This document shows positions 1-52,442 of a stretch of DNA of 52,442 nucleotides, one piece after another. The stretch comes from a virus. Taxonomy: Duplodnaviria; Caudoviricetes. The stretch is from positions 1 through 52,442 of the IMG/VR virus record IMGVR_UViG_3300034378_000127. One strand, 5' to 3'. A program made the position numbers and the translations under genes. The notes under the pieces were generated by a model that worked only from the letters and a program-made list of their open reading frames with translations, did not search any database and was not told the DNA's origin. Every line of letters starts with the position of its first letter. Positions within the stretch are counted from its first letter, which is position 1.

Positions 1-42
1 ATCGTAACCACCCCAACTGTTTACCCATCCTAAATCTTTCAT
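1..42 (-). CDS. 5' fragment of cassette ORF (MKDLGWVNSWGGYD...), truncated by window edge
   Basis: ATG at 42 preceded by GGAGGT SD, just inside cassette 5' end. Confidence 0.6.
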   Translation of the reverse strand, partial: MKDLGWVNSWGGYD

Positions 43-94
43 AATACCTCCTGCGGTAGTGCACCGAACTATAAATTGAAAGTGCAATTTATTT

Positions 95-263
95 TGCACA
101 ACGGCATGGCAAATGCACGAAGTATTGCGCCTATAATAAAAAAAGTGCAACGCATAGTTTGTTGGCTGCTGCGTTGCACTACTGGACACACTAAAAACGG
201 TCAGTGCTTCTTAATGATACAATATAATTCATGCGCAACATTTTGTGCTTTGCCTGTTAGCTG
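95..263 (-). repeat. attC-like site (long, ~169 bp)
   Basis: tgcacaac-ggcat-ggcaaatgcacgaagtattgcgc ... gcgcaacattttgtgctttgcc-t-gttagctg; nested hairpin in the loop; TAA stop of the upstream ORF lies in the core. Confidence 0.8.
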
Positions 264-418
264 TTGTGCTGCGATTCCGTTTTATCCTGCGGTTTTGCGG
301 ATTCCACAGACACAGACAGTATAAGTCCACCAATTTTAATTAGACAAGGGTTCGGCAATTCGATGTCTTTCGAATCGGCGTATACTTCACGAGTAACCTT
401 CAAAATGTCTTCTGGCAT
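257..418 (-). CDS. Cassette-encoded hypothetical protein, 53 aa (MPEDILKVTREVYADS...QHNS)
   Basis: Read by hand (below the ORF-track cutoff); AAAGGTGG SD; stop TAA inside the GCTAAC core. Confidence 0.65.
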   Translation of the reverse strand: MPEDILKVTREVYADSKDIELPNPCLIKIGGLILSVSVESAKPQDKTESQHNS

Positions 419-481
419 AATAGCCACCTTTCATTAAATGGTTTACAGATAGCAAAACCGCCTACAACATAAGCTGCATTG

Positions 482-637
482 CAGCTAACGTTCACCGTAC
501 TGTGCGAAGTTGCCGTTGTACAACATCGAAAAAGTCTATACAAATATCCATTGGTGTTTCAGCCACCTTGTATTCTTCACAATAATCGCTCCATAAATCT
601 TCAAATAACGGCAATTTTGCACTGCGGGTGTTATGCG
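482..637 (-). repeat. attC-like site (long, ~156 bp)
   Basis: cagctaac-gttc-accgtactgtgcgaagttgccgtt ... aacggcaattttgcactgcgggt-gttatgcg. Confidence 0.8.
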
Positions 638-809
638 CTGTTGAGCAAGTACCATTTTTAGGTTTGCAATACTTTCGGTGAATAGAACCGTCTTTACCAT
701 CATAAATTACGGTGCAAAGAGTACCGCACTTGGTACACCATCTTTTCGTATAACCATAACGGTTAGTATTTTCCTCACAGATTGTTCTAAACACATGCTT
801 ACATCTCAT
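492..809 (-). CDS. Cassette-encoded Cys-rich hypothetical protein (likely start MRCKH), reads through the attC
   Basis: CKH...CTKC motif; ATG at 809 lies just inside the cassette 5' repeat; the track start at 863 lies inside the upstream attC. Confidence 0.55.
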   Translation of the reverse strand: MRCKHVFRTICEENTNRYGYTKRWCTKCGTLCTVIYDGKDGSIHRKYCKPKNGTCSTAHNTRSAKLPLFEDLWSDYCEEYKVAETPMDICIDFFDVVQRQLRTVR

Positions 810-840
810 AGTTGCAAACCTACAATTAAATTTAAGAGCG

Positions 841-900
841 AAATGGTGAAGCGCTGAAAGCATTTGGCAAAGCCCGTCAGCACCATTTATTTGTTGCCTG
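841..900 (-). repeat. Degenerate attC-like site (one core lost)
   Basis: aaatggtg...caccattt stem and gttgcctg core present; expected cgcataac core absent. Confidence 0.6.
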
Positions 901-1324
901 CTGTTTGGCTCCGCTCCGCATTATTCTGCGGCGCATTACCACGAAGAATGAAAAGACAGCACGGCGACGGGCTACGCCAAGGCTCACCCGTATCCTTCTC
1001 TAAAAAACGCACACGCCCTGCGGACCTGATTTCGGCCCCTGCCGCCGCCAAATGCATCACATACGACTGACAGGGCAGTAATAAAACAGAGCCGTTCCCC
1101 CGCTTGTGTTCGGCGATAGCTTTATGCGCAAAAGCCGTTGGTCCTTTGCCGCCAACCCCGTCGTGACGACGGAACGGCGGATTCACATAATTCATGCTGC
1201 CCCACGGTACATCGAGACTGTTATACCCTTCCGGCTTGGGGTACGGGCAGGGGTCGAAATCAAAACAAAACTCCCGGTCCAGCGACTCATATAGTGCGGG
1301 AGGGGTGATCCAGTAACTTGACAT
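887..1324 (-). CDS. Phage-type DNA N6-adenine methyltransferase (Dam-like), cassette-borne
   Basis: WITPP..Y..LD.EF.FDFDPCP N-terminus and YVNPPF catalytic motif. Confidence 0.85.
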   Translation of the reverse strand: MSSYWITPPALYESLDREFCFDFDPCPYPKPEGYNSLDVPWGSMNYVNPPFRRHDGVGGKGPTAFAHKAIAEHKRGNGSVLLLPCQSYVMHLAAAGAEIRSAGRVRFLEKDTGEPWRSPSPCCLFILRGNAPQNNAERSQTAGNK

Positions 1325-1373
1325 GATTAACCTTTCTTTATGCGCCGCCTACAAAATGGTCGGAGCCAAATTG

Positions 1374-1431
1374 CAGGCAACGTGATGCCAAACGGCGGTA
1401 GTTTTAATTACTCGCCTTTGGCTGTTGCACG
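1374..1431 (-). repeat. attC-like site (58 bp)
   Basis: caggcaac-gtgat-gccaaacggcggta...tactcgcctttggc-t-gttgcacg with an extrahelical base. Confidence 0.85.
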
Positions 1432-1437
1432 ATGTAT

Positions 1438-1665
1438 TCACGATTCCGAAACCCAGGCTTGCAAATCCTCATCGTAAACAGCAGCACAGTCTTGACACCG
1501 CAAAAGCCCCTTGTGCTCGAAACGCCTTATGTGCGGACACTCATTTTCCATGTACGGATCAAGGTTGCGTTCTTCTTCCAAGTACCGAAACTCTCCGACG
1601 TGAGAGCACTGGAAACCAACAAAGTCTTTTCTGCGCACTAATTTGCAAGCCATACAATTCCCCAA
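1438..1665 (-). CDS. Cassette-encoded Cys-rich hypothetical protein
   Basis: Fills the cassette; CPH and CQDC motifs; start may be ATG 1653. Confidence 0.6.
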   Translation of the reverse strand: MGNCMACKLVRRKDFVGFQCSHVGEFRYLEEERNLDPYMENECPHIRRFEHKGLLRCQDCAAVYDEDLQAWVSES

Positions 1666-1677
1666 GAGTGAATATTT

Positions 1678-1874
1678 TGTGCAACGTCAGAATTACCCGA
1701 AGTGCCGTTACGACTGCATATAATAGCCATGAATTGGGCAATCTTTATTAATAATTAATGATAAAGACGCACTAATAATTTTGCCACTTGCATCCGTATT
1801 TTTATAATGAAGACCATTTTCTTTACAAAGGCATTTGGGCGAACCCTGTGAGCCGGGTAATTCGTTGTTGGTGG
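1678..1874 (-). repeat. attC-like site (very long, ~197 bp)
   Basis: tgtgcaac-gtca-gaattacccg ... cgggtaattc-gtt-gttggtgg. Confidence 0.7.
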
Positions 1875-2031
1875 ATGTAACATTGCCTTCCATCGATTTT
1901 TCGGCTGGTTTGCCACAATAGATACAGCGCCGCACTCCAGTACAAGGCATGCGCCCTGAGCAAGCGTATGAATGCTCCTTACACTCCACCGTTTCAACTT
2001 TGCCACACCAAGCAATAGTTTTTGTCCACAT
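1708..2031 (-). CDS. Cassette-encoded Cys-rich hypothetical protein, reads through the attC
   Basis: GGAGG SD; CKEH...CIYC; the C-terminal half is encoded inside the attC. Confidence 0.6.
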   Translation of the reverse strand: MWTKTIAWCGKVETVECKEHSYACSGRMPCTGVRRCIYCGKPAEKSMEGNVTSTNNELPGSQGSPKCLCKENGLHYKNTDASGKIISASLSLIINKDCPIHGYYMQS

Positions 2032-2073
2032 GATATCCTCCAGCCGACTATAAATTAAAAGGCAATGTTATTT

Positions 2074-2134
2074 ACACCAACGTTTGACAAATGGCAGATG
2101 TGCTGAAAGCATTTTTGCCTTTGTTTGTTGTTTG
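2074..2134 (-). repeat. attC-like site (61 bp)
   Basis: acaccaac-gttt-gacaaatggcagatgtgc-tgaaa-gcatttttgcctttgtt-t-gttgtttg. Confidence 0.85.
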
Positions 2135-2198
2135 TCTGTTTGTAAATCACCTACAATATTTTAAATCCTGTTTGCGCCGAGTTTTTAAGTTTTTGTTT

Positions 2199-3413
2199 TT
2201 AGTAAAAAAGATTAGGTTCTTTAACTTCACCGGAGTAGCCTTTGTTTAAAATATCATCGACCGTAATAAGTTCAATAAAAATTCCCTCTTTTTTTACTCT
2301 TGCAACCTCTTCTTTTGCACCTTTACCAAAACTAAAACCAACAATATAACCTTTCATCTTTTTAGTTTTAGTATTTCTATAATATCTTCTTATTGCTGTT
2401 TCAAAATTATCAACAACATTTCTACCTATTTTTTTTGATTGTTTAACCTGAATAGGACAATGCTCTAAAAAACTAAGACCATCTATACCCATGTCACCAG
2501 ATTTTTTTGGACTTGGCACACCATGCATTTCGTTGATAACCCAATATTGAAATTCATAAGGTTTGAAATCTTTTAAATCTTCTGCTTTCTGTGGCATACC
2601 AATAACATTATAATTTTTGTAAAACCCCGGAATATTAGCAAGTCTCTTTTTAATTAATGCCACAGCAGAGGGGGAAATATCAATACCTATCCATTTGCGG
2701 CCTAATTTTTCAGAAACAGCCAAAGCAGTACCGCATCCACAAAATGCATCAAGCACAATATCATTTTCATTTGAAGATGCTTTTATTACTCTTTCCAAAA
2801 GAGCTTCAGGCTTTTGGGTTGGATAACCTAATTTTTCTTTGGTTGAAGATTGAAGCGCAGCTATTTCCCAAACATCCCTAACAATAGCGTCTCTATATTG
2901 TCTTCCGTCTTTATCAATTTTAAAATCATCTTTTTTAAAACCATATTTATGTTGCATATATGAGCGTTCTGTCATGTAATTAAAAGTCCACTTGCCTGTT
3001 TTTGTATAAAATAAAAGTGTGTCGTGTTTTCTCGACCATCGCTTTTTTGTTGCGCCTTGTGTTCTGTAAGCCCAAGCAATTTCGTTTTGAAAATTTTTAT
3101 ACCCCAAAATTTCATCACACATTACTTTTAAGTAATGGGAAGCATGCCAATCACAATGAAGATAAAAGGAGCCAGTGGATTTTAATACTCTATGTAACTC
3201 TATAACCCTATCACGCATCCAATCAATATAAACATTAATACCACCTTCCCAACGGTCTTCAAAACTTCTTATTTCAGCCTCATCGCTCCAAATAATTTCA
3301 TAATTCCTGTTACTAAAAAAAGGTGGGTCGATATAAACAAGGTCAATGCTTTCTGTTTCAAATGTAGACAATATCTCTAAATTATCACCACAATAAAGTT
3401 TGTTTTTATCCAT
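2199..3413 (-). CDS. N4/N6 DNA methyltransferase (beta class) fused to a C-terminal Mrr-like PD-(D/E)xK domain; cassette-borne
   Basis: YIDPPF, YPTQKPEALL, LDAFCGCGT motifs; C-terminal GDMGIDG...IQVKQS; visibly AT-rich. Confidence 0.85.
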   Translation of the reverse strand: MDKNKLYCGDNLEILSTFETESIDLVYIDPPFFSNRNYEIIWSDEAEIRSFEDRWEGGINVYIDWMRDRVIELHRVLKSTGSFYLHCDWHASHYLKVMCDEILGYKNFQNEIAWAYRTQGATKKRWSRKHDTLLFYTKTGKWTFNYMTERSYMQHKYGFKKDDFKIDKDGRQYRDAIVRDVWEIAALQSSTKEKLGYPTQKPEALLERVIKASSNENDIVLDAFCGCGTALAVSEKLGRKWIGIDISPSAVALIKKRLANIPGFYKNYNVIGMPQKAEDLKDFKPYEFQYWVINEMHGVPSPKKSGDMGIDGLSFLEHCPIQVKQSKKIGRNVVDNFETAIRRYYRNTKTKKMKGYIVGFSFGKGAKEEVARVKKEGIFIELITVDDILNKGYSGEVKEPNLFY

Positions 3414-3540
3414 TATAAATCCATTTTTATAAAATTGTAGTATTAAGTTTATATTTTTAAATTAATTTCTTTTGTTTTTCGGCGCAAACCTATAATCCAG
3501 TGGTTTACAAATTGCAAACAACTAGAGGTTATATGAACCT

Positions 3541-3753
3541 CTATTTTTTATAAATCTTTCTTATCTTCTTACTTATCAATGGTTTAACTATTTTCATTGG
3601 TTCCTCAAGACTCAAATAAAATTCTCTTATTTTTCTTCTCCGGATTTCTTTACGCCATCTGGAAATAAGCTCATCAAATGTTTTCAAACCGTAAAATTTT
3701 CGCCAATGATTCAACACGGCATGATTCTCAACGCTCAACGCAATAGTCTTCAT
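3541..3753 (-). CDS. Small basic protein, probable ribbon-helix-helix DNA-binding protein
   Basis: MKTIALS.E....L......G.KTFDELI pattern. Confidence 0.5.
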   Translation of the reverse strand: MKTIALSVENHAVLNHWRKFYGLKTFDELISRWRKEIRRRKIREFYLSLEEPMKIVKPLISKKIRKIYKK

Positions 3754-4238
3754 AACACGCCTGCTTTCCAGAATCCCATACCAACGGCGTCAGCTTCATG
3801 CTGTCTATATCTTCTACCATTAATCCGCTCGACGCGTAGAACCATCTTTCTTTCATTGAGTTGACCGAGCCATTTTGGATCAACGAGAGTAACTTTTTTA
3901 TTATACCGTTCACACATATTCCAATAACCACCTATCAGATAAGCTAATGTATCAAGTGAACCGGATAATGAAACTCTTGTACCAAAAACTGTTGGCAAAT
4001 GTCTAACACTTTCAATCCAAACTTCATCTATTTTTTTATTAAGCGTTCTTATTAGAGCCCCAAACTGTAACCACATACTGCACATTCTCTCCCCTTGTGT
4101 AGAAACTCTTCTCTTATTTCTCTCTGGATGGATAAGTCCTGTCATTGGATGTTTATCACCATGAAAAACTGCCCATCCTGTGTTACCGATGCCAGGATCA
4201 ACGAACATTGCTTTATCAGGATATTTAATTATTTGCAC
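3750..4238 (-). CDS. RuvC-like Holliday junction resolvase
   Basis: VDPGIGNTGWAV, WIES, HEADAVGMG. Confidence 0.8.
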   Translation of the reverse strand: MQIIKYPDKAMFVDPGIGNTGWAVFHGDKHPMTGLIHPERNKRRVSTQGERMCSMWLQFGALIRTLNKKIDEVWIESVRHLPTVFGTRVSLSGSLDTLAYLIGGYWNMCERYNKKVTLVDPKWLGQLNERKMVLRVERINGRRYRQHEADAVGMGFWKAGVL

Positions 4239-49147: not shown

Positions 49148-50106
49148 CCATCCAGCTCCGGCGAAACACAATCTTTTTGCACATACCCGTTGAGATGCCC
49201 ACAGGCACAAGCCTCGAGGAACTCGCATTTATAAGGCATCATGCACGCGAATTCGTTTTTGTACACTGCGCCTCCGCTGATCACATTCTCGGCGTCGATT
49301 AATTTCAGTTTCAGCTCCTCAGCGAATCTTCTCTTGTCCGCTGGCGTGAACGCTATCTCGTAACGATGGAAAAAATTATCAGGTTCTTTGCTTATGACGC
49401 TGATCATTCTCTCTGTATATGCTTTCAGCGTTTCCCCAATATGTAACTTGTGGCTTGGTTTTCGCACAATATTATAAAGCACGCCGCGGATATTTTTACG
49501 CGTGTTCTGCTCATAAATATAGGTATAAAATAAGCACTGAAAATCGAACGAGAGATGTTTCTGCAAGAAATCGTCTCGCACATGAGATTTTGTCTTATGC
49601 TCGATGAGCCAGGGTTGATTTTTCTTGTCCAGATACTCGCCATCAATTTTCGCCCGTAGCTTGTATTCACCGCATTCCGCTTCCCAAATCTGCTCAACGC
49701 GCTTGAATTGTTTCTTAGTGAAATCTTCATCATACCGCTCTAAGTAAACGATGAATAATGCCGTAGCTTGCGCGGCGTCGAACTGAGCGGCATCCTTAGT
49801 TTTCGCGGAACCCTTTTTATAATTTTCTTTTATAAACTCATCGAGCCATTTTTTGATTTTATCAATCGCCGGTTTCGATCCATTCGAGTAGATTTTATCA
49901 AGCACATCATGGAACATCGATCCGAAACCTGTATTCAGAACCTTATCCGGATGGCTCCAGCGGTTTATCGCCAATAGCCCGCGGAGACGACAACACATGA
50001 AATTTGCCAGCAAGGATTGTGTGATACCGTCGCGCAGCATATTATATTCCTTTTTCGATGGCGGTTGTAATGTCTTGATTGACTTCGACGTGCCCTTCTT
50101 GGTCAT
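49144..50106 (-). CDS. PD-(D/E)xK (RecB/Cas4-like) exonuclease
   Basis: GSMFH, KIDG, IEHKT, Q..FY, C-terminal C....CEF..AC. Confidence 0.85.
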   Translation of the reverse strand: MTKKGTSKSIKTLQPPSKKEYNMLRDGITQSLLANFMCCRLRGLLAINRWSHPDKVLNTGFGSMFHDVLDKIYSNGSKPAIDKIKKWLDEFIKENYKKGSAKTKDAAQFDAAQATALFIVYLERYDEDFTKKQFKRVEQIWEAECGEYKLRAKIDGEYLDKKNQPWLIEHKTKSHVRDDFLQKHLSFDFQCLFYTYIYEQNTRKNIRGVLYNIVRKPSHKLHIGETLKAYTERMISVISKEPDNFFHRYEIAFTPADKRRFAEELKLKLIDAENVISGGAVYKNEFACMMPYKCEFLEACACGHLNGYVQKDCVSPELDG

Positions 50107-50573
50107 AATAACGCCTCCTTTAGCTGTCGGATGGTTTGTAAATAATAAGGTGAGCTCGTCCCTCCGCTCCGTAGCAGCGCTGCTGGATGTATTATTCGCA
50201 CTGCTTCAGGAAACTCTTTTTTATAGTATTTCTCGGCAATAGCGCCGAGAAAAATAACATGTTTTGGTTTCACAAGTCGGAATATCTTCATCACGTTCTC
50301 AGCACAGGCAAGCACCTCATCAGATAATGGGTCGCGATTCTCTGGTGGTCGACACTGCACACAGTTATATATGTAGAAGGAATCTAAATTTATTTCTTTT
50401 AACATAATATTAAGCAATCTACCTGCAACTCCAGTGAACGCGATTCCGGTGACATTTTCTGAAGCACCAGGAGCCTCTCCGAGGAATAATACTTTAGCTG
50501 GAATTATGCCGCGTCCTTTAACAACTAGACGGCGTGTTTTATGTAAACGACAATTTTTGCAAAATTCTTTCAT
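50103..50573 (-). CDS. udg: Uracil-DNA glycosylase, family 4
   Basis: CKNC.L, LGEAPG..E, F.G.AG, C..CRPP.NR.P, HPAA; an in-frame upstream ATG at 50681 adds 36 cassette-derived residues. Confidence 0.9.
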   Translation of the reverse strand: MKEFCKNCRLHKTRRLVVKGRGIIPAKVLFLGEAPGASENVTGIAFTGVAGRLLNIMLKEINLDSFYIYNCVQCRPPENRDPLSDEVLACAENVMKIFRLVKPKHVIFLGAIAEKYYKKEFPEAVRIIHPAALLRSGGTSSPYYLQTIRQLKEALL

Positions 50574-50734
50574 ATGTTGTTGTGGGGAGTGATGTGCCAA
50601 CTCCTTAGATAACTGTGCGGCTTTTCTTTCGAGTCGATCACATCGCTCCTGCCAGTCTGATTCTAACATTCTATGATGCATAAATTGCCTTTCGTTAAAG
50701 CCGCACCTAAGTACATAGACTCGGCACAGAATTT

Positions 50735-50796
50735 ACCACAACGTCCGATGCATGGCCGATGTATGTACTCATATTTCGGCCTGCATTTGTTGTACG
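50735..50796 (-). repeat. attC-like site (62 bp)
   Basis: accacaac-gtcc-gatgcatggccga...tcggcctgcatt-t-gttgtacg. Confidence 0.85.
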
Positions 50797-51503
50797 CTGT
50801 TTTCAGAATCTCCACCAGTGCTGTTTTCGCCCTGGTCGAACAAAGACAATTGCGCTTGAGCATCTCGAAGCCGATTGCGGGCTATGTTTACATACTCTAA
50901 CTCTTGTTCTATGCAAATAAACCTGCGATTAAGAGCGTGGCAAGCCAATGCTGTTGTGCCACTACCAGCAAACGGGTCCAATACTAAATCATCCGGTTTC
51001 GTAAATAACTCCAAGCACCATTTGAATAAAGGCACTGGTTTTTGTGTGGGGTGGCATTTACCATCGCACTTGTTTATATAGGAATCAGCGCGGCTCATGT
51101 CAAAAATGCGAATTGGTTTATCGTTTGCGCTTGTCCACGCGATTTCACCATCAGTCATATACCCGCGCTGAATTTTGTTCCAAACAAGCCAGCAGCTACT
51201 TTGTGGCAACCGCATATAGTTGCCGCCCCACATTATTTGGTTTTGACTGACGCGAAGCATCTCTGTAATAACCTCAATATCTGGTGGCGCATTGTCCCAT
51301 TCATAGCAAGCATACCTCTTCCATCGACCACTATTAGAAACGCGGCCCGAATCACTTATTTGGTTTTGCGCCACATCATAACCGATACCGTAAGGAGGAT
51401 CAGTCAAAACCAAATCCACGCTCTTGTCACCAAGCTGCTTTAGAACCTCGTAGCAATCGGCGTGTATGATTTTACCGACCATGTTTTCTATTGTGTATTT
51501 CAT
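50769..51503 (-). CDS. N4/N6 DNA methyltransferase (beta class), cassette-borne
   Basis: LTDPPY, HPTQKP, LDPFAGSGTT; stop lies inside the attC. Confidence 0.92.
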   Translation of the reverse strand: MKYTIENMVGKIIHADCYEVLKQLGDKSVDLVLTDPPYGIGYDVAQNQISDSGRVSNSGRWKRYACYEWDNAPPDIEVITEMLRVSQNQIMWGGNYMRLPQSSCWLVWNKIQRGYMTDGEIAWTSANDKPIRIFDMSRADSYINKCDGKCHPTQKPVPLFKWCLELFTKPDDLVLDPFAGSGTTALACHALNRRFICIEQELEYVNIARNRLRDAQAQLSLFDQGENSTGGDSENSVQQMQAEI

Positions 51504-51541
51504 AAGGGCGAAAACCTATAAATTAAAAATTCTGAAAATGG

Positions 51542-51625
51542 CGTACAACGGGTTGCCAAACGGACGCTTTACAGTACACTAATCAAACAGGCTGCCCTGT
51601 ATTGCGCTCCTTTGGCTGTTGTGTT
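51542..51625 (-). repeat. attC-like site (84 bp)
   Basis: cgtacaac-gggtt-gccaaacggacgc...gcgctcctttggc-t-gttgtgtt. Confidence 0.85.
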
Positions 51626-51645
51626 TTGTAAAGTTGCCCACAATA

Positions 51646-51849
51646 TTAATCTTCAGCGGGCGGGTTATAATTAATTACTGGCTGCAATAGGTCAGCAAAA
51701 GTTAAGTTACCAGCCTCTATTTCATCTATAATTTTATTTCCAACTTGTTTAAAATCGCCAATTGTTTTAAGCCCATTATCATCACACACTTTCTTGGCAG
51801 CATCCTTGACAACACTAAACTGTTCTTTTGACAAATTTCTATAAGCCAC
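51646..51849 (-). CDS. Cassette-encoded hypothetical protein
   Basis: Fills the cassette; AAAGGA SD. Confidence 0.65.
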   Translation of the reverse strand: MAYRNLSKEQFSVVKDAAKKVCDDNGLKTIGDFKQVGNKIIDEIEAGNLTFADLLQPVINYNPPAED

Positions 51850-51905
51850 TTTTTGATCCTTTCAGTTTAGCCCGCTGACTTCAATACCAGCAGGCAAGTT
51901 TATTG

Positions 51906-51968
51906 AACACAACGTTTGCGCCTATACGATAGTACCGTTTCGGTATTTTGTATAGGCGCTGTTATGCG
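51906..51968 (-). repeat. attC-like site (63 bp)
   Basis: aacacaac-gttt-gcgcctatacgatagtaccg-ttt-cggtattttgtataggcgc-t-gttatgcg; upstream TAA stop in the core. Confidence 0.9.
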
Positions 51969-52222
51969 GCGTTGGCCGTTTCCTTAGATTTCTGCGCTTG
52001 CAAAACCGGCATAACGATTTTCTCGTAGATACGAATCTGTTTTTCGTAATCGGCATCACCGCTGCCAACAATTGCAATGACTGTGCCAACATCTAACCCC
52101 CGCAATTTAGAATAAAGGGTGCGAACCTCGTTGTTGTAAAAAAAATGATTAGCCCACCATTTGCCATGATACTTTAAACAGTATGACATCAAATCGTGTT
52201 CCAAATCTGCAACAAAATGCAC
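51962..52222 (-). CDS. Cassette-encoded hypothetical protein
   Basis: GGAGG SD; stop inside GCATAAC. Confidence 0.7.
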   Translation of the reverse strand: MHFVADLEHDLMSYCLKYHGKWWANHFFYNNEVRTLYSKLRGLDVGTVIAIVGSGDADYEKQIRIYEKIVMPVLQAQKSKETANAA

Positions 52223-52273
52223 AACGCCTCCTTTGCAAGCGCCTAATTTTTAAAGGCCAATGTGCGAAGCGAA

Positions 52274-52356
52274 CGCATAACGTCCGACACAGGCTGAAGT
52301 TGCGTCAAGCAATTTGGGCCGTAGCGACAGCGGAGCCAGCCTGTGTTTGTTGGGCG
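52274..52356 (-). repeat. attC-like site (83 bp)
   Basis: cgcataac-gtcc-gacacaggctg...cagcctgtgtt-t-gttgggcg. Confidence 0.85.
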
Positions 52357-52442
52357 CTGTTCGCGTCCGCTCCGCTATCAACTTTCGGCTCACAGGTATC
52401 ATCGTAGAGCAAAATGTTCGACACCATCCATTCGTAACCGCA
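52305..52442 (-). CDS. 3' fragment of cassette ORF (...CGYEWMVSNILLYDD...AQIA), truncated by window edge
   Basis: Frame is open from the window end to a TGA inside the attC. Confidence 0.5.
   Translation of the reverse strand, partial: CGYEWMVSNILLYDDTCEPKVDSGADANSAQQTQAGSAVATAQIA

Follow-up and report, generated by a model that had tools for sequence, protein, structure and literature searches.

The window, i.e., the whole 52,442-nt stretch analysed here, is a tailed-phage contig rated 88% complete, and it carries an integron-like row of small gene cassettes at both of its ends (50579–52442 and 1–3543; Table 1). These are promoterless gene cassettes within a tailed-phage genome: No sigma-70-type promoters were called at the cassette 5′ ends, and no promoters were called in the junctions that separate them. 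Four further complete cassettes with the same blocks lie at the far end of the contig (50579–52281), and the contig ends themselves cut through cassettes at 52349–52442 and 1–102. Between the left end of the cassette at 50579–50742 and the start of the UDG gene (50567), a junction hairpin is absent.

Table 1. Cassettes and junctions of the array, from 50579 to 52442 and then from 1 to 3543. A, B and C are the first, second and third blocks counted from the GTT/AAC core; primes mark the right-hand arm.
Positions	Feature	Strand	Blocks and remarks
50579–50742	Cassette, small ORF in frame into UDG gene	-	A 50579–50585/50736–50742, B 50593–50598/50723–50728, C 50615–50624/50697–50706
50743–50788	Junction hairpin: AAC, 5-nt spacer, stem with one-base bulge, loop, stem, 2-nt spacer, GTT		Stem read by eye
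50789–51549	Cassette, N6/N4 DNA methyltransferase (ORF 50769–51503)	-	A 50789–50797/51541–51549, B 50800–50809/51529–51538, C 50823–50833/51505–51515
51550–51617	Junction hairpin, type as 1382–1423		
51618–51913	Cassette, 67-aa ORF (51646–51849)	-	A 51618–51625/51906–51913, B 51633–51640/51891–51898 (one mismatch), C 51653–51661/51870–51878
51914–51960	Junction hairpin, perfect 10-bp stem		
51961–52281	Cassette, 86-aa ORF (51962–52222)	-	A 51961–51968/52274–52281, B weak, C 51994–52004/52232–52242
52282–52348	Junction hairpin		
52349–52442	ORF-3′ end of cassette cut by contig end	-	A, TG, B, loop opening with YTCC motif; by eye
1–102	ORF-5′ end of cassette cut by contig start; ORF start 42	-	C′ 59–68, B′ 82–91, A′ 96–102; by eye
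103–255	Junction, very long terminal loop		Stem arms 108–118/245–254, one-base bulge; by eye
256–489	Cassette, 56-aa ORF (257–427)	-	A 256–263/482–489, B degenerate, C 289–298/452–461
490–639	Irregular long junction, read through by ORF 492–809		Stem 502–517/607–622
640–892	Degenerate cassette, right-hand A′ missing, then junction hairpin 841–885	-	A 640–646, B 651–657, C 659–669/812–822; by eye
893–1381	Cassette, Dam-like methyltransferase (ORF 887–1324)	-	A 893–901/1373–1381, B 904–913/1361–1370, C 928–936/1340–1348
1382–1423	Junction hairpin		5-nt spacer, one-base bulge on AAC arm, 1-nt spacer
1424–1685	Cassette, 71-aa Cys-rich ORF (1438–1653)	-	A 1424–1430/1679–1685, B 1435–1441/1668–1674, C 1456–1466/1641–1651
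1686–1866	Junction, long terminal loop		Stem 1691–1699/1854–1862; by eye
1867–2081	Cassette, Cys-rich ORF starting at 2031	-	A 1867–1873/2075–2081, B 1878–1889/2059–2070, C 1901–1908/2040–2047
2082–2126	Junction hairpin		
2127–3522	Cassette, 404-aa N6/N4 methyltransferase, weak Mrr-like C-terminal match (ORF 2199–3413)	-	A 2127–2134/3515–3522, B 2139–2150/3500–3511 (one mismatch), C 2170–2180/3479–3489
3523–3543	Terminal hairpin at array edge		Adjoins last AAC without spacer, no GTT after, T-run on + strand

The junctions have an attC-like build (..YAAC, spacer, stem-loop, spacer, GTTR..), and their core lengths fall mostly within the attC range. As in integrons, whose attC sites are ordered R″-L″-VTS-L′-R′ and are acted on by IntI as bottom-strand hairpins, small co-oriented genes without detected promoters are separated by imperfect hairpins, bounded here by ..AAC and GTT... 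Unlike those of classical attC sites, which measure 5–6 nt on each arm, the junction spacers are asymmetric (4–5 nt versus 1–2 nt in 8 of 10 junctions, by eye), and on the non-coding strand it is the AAC arm that bears the bulge, opposite to its classical place when gene direction is taken as reference. By the extrahelical-base rule (Nivina 2016, PMC5027507), a bulge so placed would mean that every ORF of the array points the opposite way from the canonical arrangement.

Within each cassette, the left and right ends can pair in three blocks. When all 22,502 GTT..AAC pairs lying 110–1700 nt apart in the window were scanned without bias, the array cassettes ranked at the top, with scores of 34–44; among background pairs, 2532/3715 reached 35 by chance and the rest scored at most 33. 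Four three-block pairs proposed in a sequence-only reading were recovered (893–936/1340–1381, 1424–1466/1641–1685, 1867–1908/2040–2081 and 2127–2180/3479–3522), and two more that it had listed as outer blocks turned out to be third blocks, the pair 289/452 belonging to the cassette at 256–489 and the pair 659/812 to a cassette at 640 to about 860 that is degenerate and lacks its right-hand first block. That each end pairs with its own partner was borne out by duplex energies computed with the conserved GTTG/CAAC removed: The mean was −21.4 kcal/mol (range −14 to −31) for own ends versus −9.0 kcal/mol (sd 2.4, best −16.2) for ends of different window cassettes, the own partner ranked first in 9/9 rows and 9/9 columns, and 0 of 100,000 permutations reached the observed own-end mean.

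Part of this complementarity is ordinary. Block 1 is R-box complementarity that runs about 2 nt past the R box; in a canonical Vibrio-type array, the first cassette bases are likewise complementary to the box before their own hairpin, for 8–11 nt only. The earlier claim that the arms lie outside the standard attC model therefore fails for block 1 and stands for blocks 2 and 3, which together with a fixed mismatch and conserved loops contribute about 35 nt of own-end pairing that integron attC sites lack. Past nucleotide 11, the own partner was still the best in 9/9 window cassettes and, at the loci L131 and L092, in 9/10 and 8/8, whereas 13 Vibrio-type cassettes showed no pairing there (own −5.2 versus cross −6.1 kcal/mol; own best in 0/13).

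In all, 37 cassettes of this build were collected from 14 loci, of which some lie in phage contigs without any protein in common with the window. Read outward from the GTT/AAC core, a 9-bp stem is followed by a 2-nt mismatch that does not vary (AA facing TG), a 10-bp stem, an internal loop of about 13 nt on each arm and a last stem of 7–10 bp. The block sequences are unique to each cassette, as had been claimed, yet they are not free-form, since one fixed register is common to the whole family: End-to-end agreement is 0.73–0.92 at positions 4–9 and 0.81–0.95 at positions 12–21, as against about 0.25 for shuffled partners, and it drops to background at positions 22–35. The cassettes were chosen by the mismatch and not by sequence beyond it, and in 37/37 the distance from the recombination core to the start of block 2 is exactly 12 nt. 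The third block begins at about position 35–36 on both arms, and exact third-block matches of at least 7 nt occur in 28/37 own pairs versus 75/1212 cross pairs. Each loop has its own motif, TTRTAG occurring on 21/37 ORF-5′ ends and 0/37 opposite arms, and YTCC on 21/37 of the opposite arms and 0/37 ORF-5′ ends. Stems that vary while their loops are conserved usually point to a fold under selection. Two homologous methyltransferase cassettes (window 50789–51549 and L092 772–1515; 47% identical over 221 aa) differ in blocks 2 and 3, and each pair is still self-complementary.

So far the layout occurs in phage or viral contigs only: It was present in 0/20 bacterial integron-integrase neighbourhoods. 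No cassette was found in two contigs with different neighbours. Unlike integrons, these phage arrays carry no integrase or attI in cis; both are absent from the window contig, and a tyrosine recombinase is absent from seven phage records with such cassettes (the window, contig G001:C2 and five more, two of which are rated 100% complete). No protein family is common to more than three of the seven. Virulent phages are described in Qi et al. 2023 (PMC9892861) as carrying attC clusters with methyltransferase cassettes, and IntI1 is reported there to have recombined 5/6 tested sites; the present arrays resemble these CALINs in being phage-borne, in their DNA methyltransferase cassettes and in lacking an integrase. 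The main text of that paper says nothing of arms outside the L and R boxes (0 matches for 'complementar' and 'stem'), and no prior description of the layout was found. One of its examples, Polaribacter phage P12002L, has block 1, the same CAA/CTG mismatch and an 18-nt block 2 around gp53 and gp54; it differs in being a two-block version without the third block, and its genes run on the opposite strand when element polarity is taken as reference. Because mismatch polarity and spacer polarity stay coupled in P12002L even so, element polarity belongs to the DNA element. In another of its examples, Tetrasphaera phage TJE1, extended pairing is absent (0 pairs scoring at least 33).

We give an even chance to the reading that these are integron-like cassettes whose recombination palindrome extends about 45 nt beyond the crossover; the three-block pairing is probably part of the site used for excision and insertion of the units. 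Sequence switches from a cassette's own to its neighbour's in the interval separating the first block from the junction hairpin, and a crossover at this position, by which a cassette is circularised, would bring all three blocks beside the junction hairpin, lengthening its stem by about 27 bp in the circle and producing one long imperfect palindrome of about 150–180 nt. Predicted fold energies were −31.8 to −45.3 kcal/mol for circular-junction constructs versus −13 to −27.8 kcal/mol for array-state junctions. In the excised circle, the outer stems may make the site fold or extrude more stably. On single-stranded array DNA, they would fold each cassette into a loop that brings the two junctions flanking it next to each other. 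Minimum-energy folds of whole single-stranded cassettes (70-nt flanks, DNA energy parameters) keep at least 15 own-end pairs in 20/23 cassettes on each strand; such stems would be in competition with the R-box pairing on which a classical attC depends. Both ideas, a stem-loop pairing the flanking sites and an extended attC stem in the circle, had been raised in the sequence-only reading, and the geometry and predicted folds are consistent with them.

The main rival, which we regard as possible but rather unlikely, is that the stems act in RNA: The array would be co-transcribed, and the 5′ leader of each cistron would pair with its own 3′ end in an internally looped stalk of about 25–30 bp that is cut by a double-strand RNase, protects both mRNA ends or gates the start codon just after block 3. 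The lack of promoter calls at cassette 5′ ends favours this account, as do the strong TTGACA-17-TATATT promoter upstream of the L131 array, the end of block 3 lying 8–27 nt ahead of the next ATG in 15/21 TTRTAG-bearing ends (those with an ATG inside the 60-nt end examined), and the survival of the own-end stem in the coding-strand folds. At positions 24–25 the 5′ arm mostly has T where the reversed 3′ arm has C, a combination that gives wobble (G.U) pairs on the coding strand only. By analogy, the stems may also be likened to rRNA processing stalks (flanking 16S/23S) and the RNase III sites between T7 early genes, which likewise enclose a single functional unit of a polycistronic transcript by long-range or local double strands with internal loops; unlike in those, the register of the present stems is that of a DNA recombination core. 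An RNA-only role needs no such register as the exact 12-nt start of block 2, the polarity marks of P12002L lie on the strand opposite to its genes, and G.T-compatible (transition) mismatches favour the non-coding strand by 23 to 7. The strand preference of the own-end stems is weak and mixed, the outer stems alone favouring the non-coding strand by only 0.72 kcal/mol (23/37, p = 0.039).

Conserved hairpins between small accessory genes also recall the PeSLs of T4-type phages, which reportedly are promoter-terminator motifs in variable regions that act through homology and are thought to mediate module shuffling. Homologous recombination between junction hairpins might similarly shuffle the present modules, leaving the own-end repeats with another purpose or none, a reading that we consider unlikely. 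Near-unchanged hairpins do occur beside different cassettes (at L092 one 155-nt segment recurs with 79% identity overall, its hairpins near-identical by eye), junction types common to several contigs are 77–94% identical over 40–80 nt, the phages encode no recombinase, and crossovers anywhere within a conserved hairpin would keep the same own-end linkage. Such exchange leaves the fixed geometry, invariant mismatch and arm-specific loop motifs unexplained; the AAC/GTT cores and hairpin asymmetry are attC-like, and, unlike PeSLs, the junctions lack promoter calls and each gene has its own inverted ends.

A third idea of the sequence-only reading was a footprint of cassette creation. That the repeats arose in this way (e.g., as a fold-back copy of the gene end) and have no present function is more improbable still. 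The appeal of this view is that the 3′ copies fall behind the conserved methyltransferase domains, in the C-terminal tails (the Dam profile match covers residues 4–127 of 145, and the N6_N4 domain ends at residue 209 of 244), and that the origin of cassettes is called unknown in Loot 2017 (PMC5371416). A plain decaying copy would, however, lose complementarity evenly, whereas here perfect blocks with sharp edges and fixed lengths alternate with loops that never pair and carry arm-specific motifs, the mismatch is fixed, and homologous cassettes with diverged blocks still pair. Finally, although every unit is bounded by inverted repeats beginning GTT and ending AAC, it is very improbable that these are tandem MITE-like transposons, because a transposase needs conserved ends, and here conservation is limited to 3–4 nt, with blocks 2 and 3 changing from one cassette to the next; none of the proteins scanned (part of the window's ORFs) was recognised as a transposase, and no flanking direct repeats were seen by eye.

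If the cassettes do recombine through an extended palindrome, the whole of it would be the recombination site of this family, with the crossover about 45 nt inside rather than 6 nt from the edge as in classical attC, and the conserved mismatch and loop motifs would serve as contacts for an enzyme or helper protein, probably supplied by the host. Were the stems instead to act in RNA, each cassette would bring its own processing and expression context.

A chance origin of the pairing between cassette ends is ruled out by a window-wide scan and by the shuffling of partners. When all 22,502 pairs of GTT and AAC lying 110–1700 nt apart were scored for how well the 50 nt at either end complement each other, the array cassettes took the top ranks, with scores of 34–44 against a background of one chance pair at 35 and all others at or below 33, and four additional cassettes turned up at 50579–52281. 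The sequence-only reading had claimed that each cassette has its own three-block terminal inverted repeat of about 45 nt, a claim at odds with any cross-cassette pairing as strong as that of own ends. The blocks that it quoted are present where it placed them, and own-end pairing is clearly the stronger: once the four conserved core bases are left out, the pairing energy is −21.4 kcal/mol between own ends and −9.0 (sd 2.4) between ends of different cassettes, the own partner comes first in 9/9 rows and 9/9 columns of the comparison of window cassettes, and none of 100,000 partner shuffles reached the observed mean pairing energy. Counted inward from the GTT/AAC core, the first block (block A) measures 7–9 nt and is complementary to the R'' box of the cassette's own junction in all nine cassettes. 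In three window cassettes, 6–7 nt of the second block also occur in the 3' arm of the hairpin in the junction on the high-coordinate side (Table), and alternative pairings are possible there.

The phage record is linear, with a completeness rating of 88% in IMG/VR, and all of its long open reading frames lie on the minus strand; named genes include those for a portal protein, a family-A DNA polymerase, a primase-like protein, a PD-(D/E)XK nuclease, UDG and a RuvC-like resolvase. Cassettes do occupy 256–3522, the range given in the sequence-only reading, but the array is larger: it takes up both ends of the contig, 50579–52442 and 1–3543, and is flanked by the UDG gene and a 70-aa ORF. Cassette ORFs are on the minus strand without exception, and those that do not encode methyltransferases (Table) are small, several of them Cys-rich, and without a family match. 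Both contig ends interrupt the array (1–42 and 52305–52442), and the ORF fragments there would be in frame if the ends were joined; because the two cut cassettes differ in their blocks, some sequence between the ends is probably missing. The small ORF of cassette 50579–50742 has no stop codon and continues in frame into the UDG gene (50103–50681), whose own start is at 50567, and no junction hairpin separates the two. Another ORF, 492..809, is open across the entire 150-nt junction 490–639. In junctions 103–255 and 1686–1866 the terminal loops measure 126 and 154 nt and contain extra small palindromes (e.g., 146–180); these junctions may be what is left of units that were nested or have decayed. 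A search for close relatives through the SNF2 helicase found no locus in the viral contig collection, and all of its matches among the GenBank phages listed had at most 29% identity.

Features of the window, with coordinates on the contig
Feature	Coordinates	Strand	Remark
Dam-like methyltransferase	887..1324	-	cassette ORF
N6_N4 methyltransferase	2199..3413	-	cassette ORF
N6_N4 methyltransferase	50769..51503	-	cassette ORF
RuvC-like Holliday-junction resolvase	3750–4238		phrog_159, E 1.6e-8; two genes off the array edge
Second block / hairpin arm, shared stretch	904–913 vs 1414–1422		
Second block / hairpin arm, shared stretch	1878–1889 vs 2114–2124		
Second block / hairpin arm, shared stretch	651–657 vs 878–885		

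Canonical integrons served as controls. In the 13 cassettes of the Vibrio-type integron that, together with an integrase, is carried by phage MK672802 (named by Qi et al. 2023, PMC9892861), the first 8–11 nt are complementary to the box before the cassette's own attC in every case. Because these cassettes carry it too, block 1 amounts to the standard R box with a few bases added, and the earlier claim that the arms fall outside the attC model fails for this block. Past nucleotide 11, the Vibrio-type ends give −5.2 kcal/mol for own versus −6.1 for cross pairing, with the own end best in 0/13; the window gives −18.8 versus −8.1, with the own end best in 9/9. The second control covered 401 genomes of one phylum, centred on a Kordia genome, and the 20 TIGR02249 neighbourhoods fetched from them: the layout occurred in none of these bacterial integron-integrase neighbourhoods, where cassette ends match over only about 10–13 nt. 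TIGR02249, the integron integrase, scored above cut-off in 113 of the 401 sampled genomes (G009–G406), a higher share than expected.

To find the layout elsewhere, a search pattern built from two window junctions was run on genome and metagenome contigs, followed by an end-pairing scan. Eleven cassettes with the layout lie at locus L131 (identical to L027 of contig G001:C2) and eight at L092, and it recurs at L093, L087, L141, L164, L175, L128 and L045; the window and G001:C2 have no common protein at E below 1e-5. A strict junction pattern had no match in the viral contig collection. Of 50 viral loci from a further pattern search, none held a layout pair scoring at least 36; at a threshold of 28, such pairs appeared in four (L206, L212, L228 and L229), with more in the full records of the viral contigs behind them. 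No such ends were present in 23 viral loci encoding homologues of the 404-aa methyltransferase or in one encoding a homologue of the 244-aa enzyme; the scan matches in these loci were noise, mostly from the AT-rich L022. Within the window, the layout scan returned five matches, all in the array, and none in the remaining 46.7 kb.

Requiring AA and TG on opposite ends at positions 10–11 and a total score of at least 29 yielded 37 non-redundant cassettes from 14 loci, the lowest-scoring of which are less sure since scattered false positives occur in unrelated loci at scores of 28–32. Compared position by position, ORF-5' ends and reversed ORF-3' ends agree at rates of 0.73–0.92 at positions 4–9 and 0.81–0.95 at positions 12–21 (about 0.25 for shuffled partners); agreement falls to background at positions 22–35, and a third block starts at about position 35–36 in both arms. 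An exact match of at least 7 nt in this third block is found in 28/37 own pairs versus 75/1212 cross pairs. The intervening loops differ between arms: TTRTAG occurs at 21/37 ORF-5' ends and 0/37 opposite arms, and YTCC follows block 2 on 21/37 opposite arms and at 0/37 ORF-5' ends. The constancy of the block lengths, the invariant mismatch and the loop motifs peculiar to each arm are sequence features that point to a bound protein.

How the blocks relate to the encoded proteins can be seen in two methyltransferase cassettes, window 50789–51549 and L092 772–1515, whose products share 47% identity over 221 aa. The second and third blocks of the two cassettes are very unlike, each pair being self-complementary, and the protein homology ends just short of the third block, which places the 3' block copies in tails that extend beyond the enzyme domain. 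Other cassettes vary in content. Two at L131 (3232–3405 and 5778–5922; 174 and 145 nt) have the usual ends, first and second blocks that are alike, and no evident ORF, and may represent non-coding cargo. At L131:4126–4255, the ORF continues past the AAC box into a long junction loop, whose coding sequence adds a zinc-ribbon-like tail (CxxC...CxxC). The transcription unit of the L131 array is bracketed by three strong promoter-like sites of near-identical sequence (TTGACA, 17 nt, TATATT or TATCTT), at L131:2620, 6864 and 7094. The 22-kb viral contig G002 has cassettes at two places in opposite orientations (L258:2975–4077 and L258:19738–L259).

In box ends and length, the junctions, the stem-loops between neighbouring cassettes, resemble attC sites. 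Nine of the ten window junctions have the ..YAAC and GTTR ends of attC boxes around the stem-loop; the array-edge hairpin at 3523–3543 is without GTT and is the sole hairpin with a T-run. Lengths between the boxes (42–68 nt in six, 150–178 nt in three with long terminal loops) are compatible with the roughly 57–141 bp of attC. The bottom, or non-coding, strand of attC has the more stable fold and more G:T pairs. In predicted folds, the non-coding strand is more stable in 9/10 circular constructs, by 2–5 kcal/mol, and in 23/37 outer stems taken alone (mean difference 0.72 kcal/mol), and G.T-compatible mismatches favour it by 23 to 7; at positions 24–25 the coding strand is favoured, and the strand preference is mixed overall. 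Two features depart from the canon. The unpaired central spacer of attC has about 5–6 nt per arm (Nivina 2016, PMC5027507), whereas by eye the spacers of 8/10 window junctions are asymmetric, with 4–5 nt after AAC and 1–2 nt before GTT. Extrahelical bases of attC lie on the arm opposite AAC of the non-coding strand (Nivina 2016, PMC5027507), whereas the single bulge seen by eye in 5/10 window junctions is always on the AAC arm of that strand, the 'wrong' arm relative to the genes. Nor is an integrase found in cis: PF00589 has no match in the window, in contig G001:C2 or in five further cassette-bearing records, and the arrays fit the 'CALIN' class only. A shared phage-encoded recombinase was not found either, no protein family being common to more than 3/7 records. 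Rfam gave no matches.

Other kinds of element fit less well. A promoter in every cassette is not supported, there being no sigma-70-type calls at junctions or at the coding-strand 5' ends of cassettes; T4-type PeSLs, by comparison, combine an early promoter with a terminator-like stem-loop. Copies of a MITE or transposon have conserved ends and target-site duplications, whereas cross-cassette pairing in the window is at background, and by eye no flanking direct repeats were seen at the window cassettes.

Among published phages, Qi et al. 2023 (PMC9892861) describe integrase-less attC clusters of virulent phages in which methyltransferase cassettes are frequent, and report that IntI1 recombined five of six tested sites, and one of two P12002L sites. 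Around gp53 and gp54 of P12002L we find block 1 together with the same CAA/CTG mismatch and a second block of 18 nt. Its spacer polarity agrees with the attC canon, and, compared with window-type arrays, its genes are on the strand opposite to the element polarity marks. TJE1, another phage of that study, has no extended end pairing. Arms past the L and R boxes are not mentioned in the main text of PMC9892861, and the corresponding parts of PMC5027507 and PMC5371416 give only a 7-bp R-box model; a literature search together with these three papers, whose supplements may hold site sequences, yielded no arms beyond the R box.

Three results bear on what the blocks might do. The switch from own to neighbouring sequence falls between the junction hairpin and block 1, the position where integrons cross over; ends joined in silico are predicted to fold into a single long hairpin at −31.8 to −45.3 kcal/mol (array-state junctions, −13 to −27.8); and whole-cassette single-strand folds keep the own-end stem in 20/23 cassettes on each strand. 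On these grounds, the three blocks would make up the outer portion of a recombination palindrome that is enlarged relative to classical attC. A role in RNA, with the blocks forming a closing stalk around each cistron beside the start codon, is possible but less probable. RNA processing stalks combine a duplex of about 20 bp or more, made by the flanks of one unit in a transcript, with cleavage by a double-strand RNase; for the cassettes, such a duplex is predicted by folding.

Less likely still is a separate phage-borne gene-exchange system, distinct from classical integron cassettes, with the closing stem of one cassette's two ends as its substrate. In single-stranded form, a cassette would pair its own GTT and AAC cores opposite each other at the base of the three-part stem. 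A structure-specific enzyme of host or phage, with the invariant mismatch and the loop motifs as its guides, would cut and rejoin there, so that a single fold would free one cassette, and neither an integron integrase nor a pair of folded attC sites would be required. Shuffling through homology between conserved junctions is about equally unlikely. By blastn the junctions are the sole sequences shared among arrays, and no cassette was found in different company.

The enlarged-palindrome reading touches on how integron cassettes are built and on what limits a recombination site. The edge of the standard attC site lies 6 nt past the crossover, and this phage-borne family retains about 45 nt of structured, self-complementary sequence past the predicted crossover. 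The layout offers a sharp search pattern for further arrays of this kind and suits mutate-and-compensate tests of sequences outside the classical attC in excision, integration and expression. Because three of the window's cassettes encode DNA methyltransferases and several encode small Cys-rich proteins, such arrays may be exchangeable anti-restriction toolkits of lytic phages.
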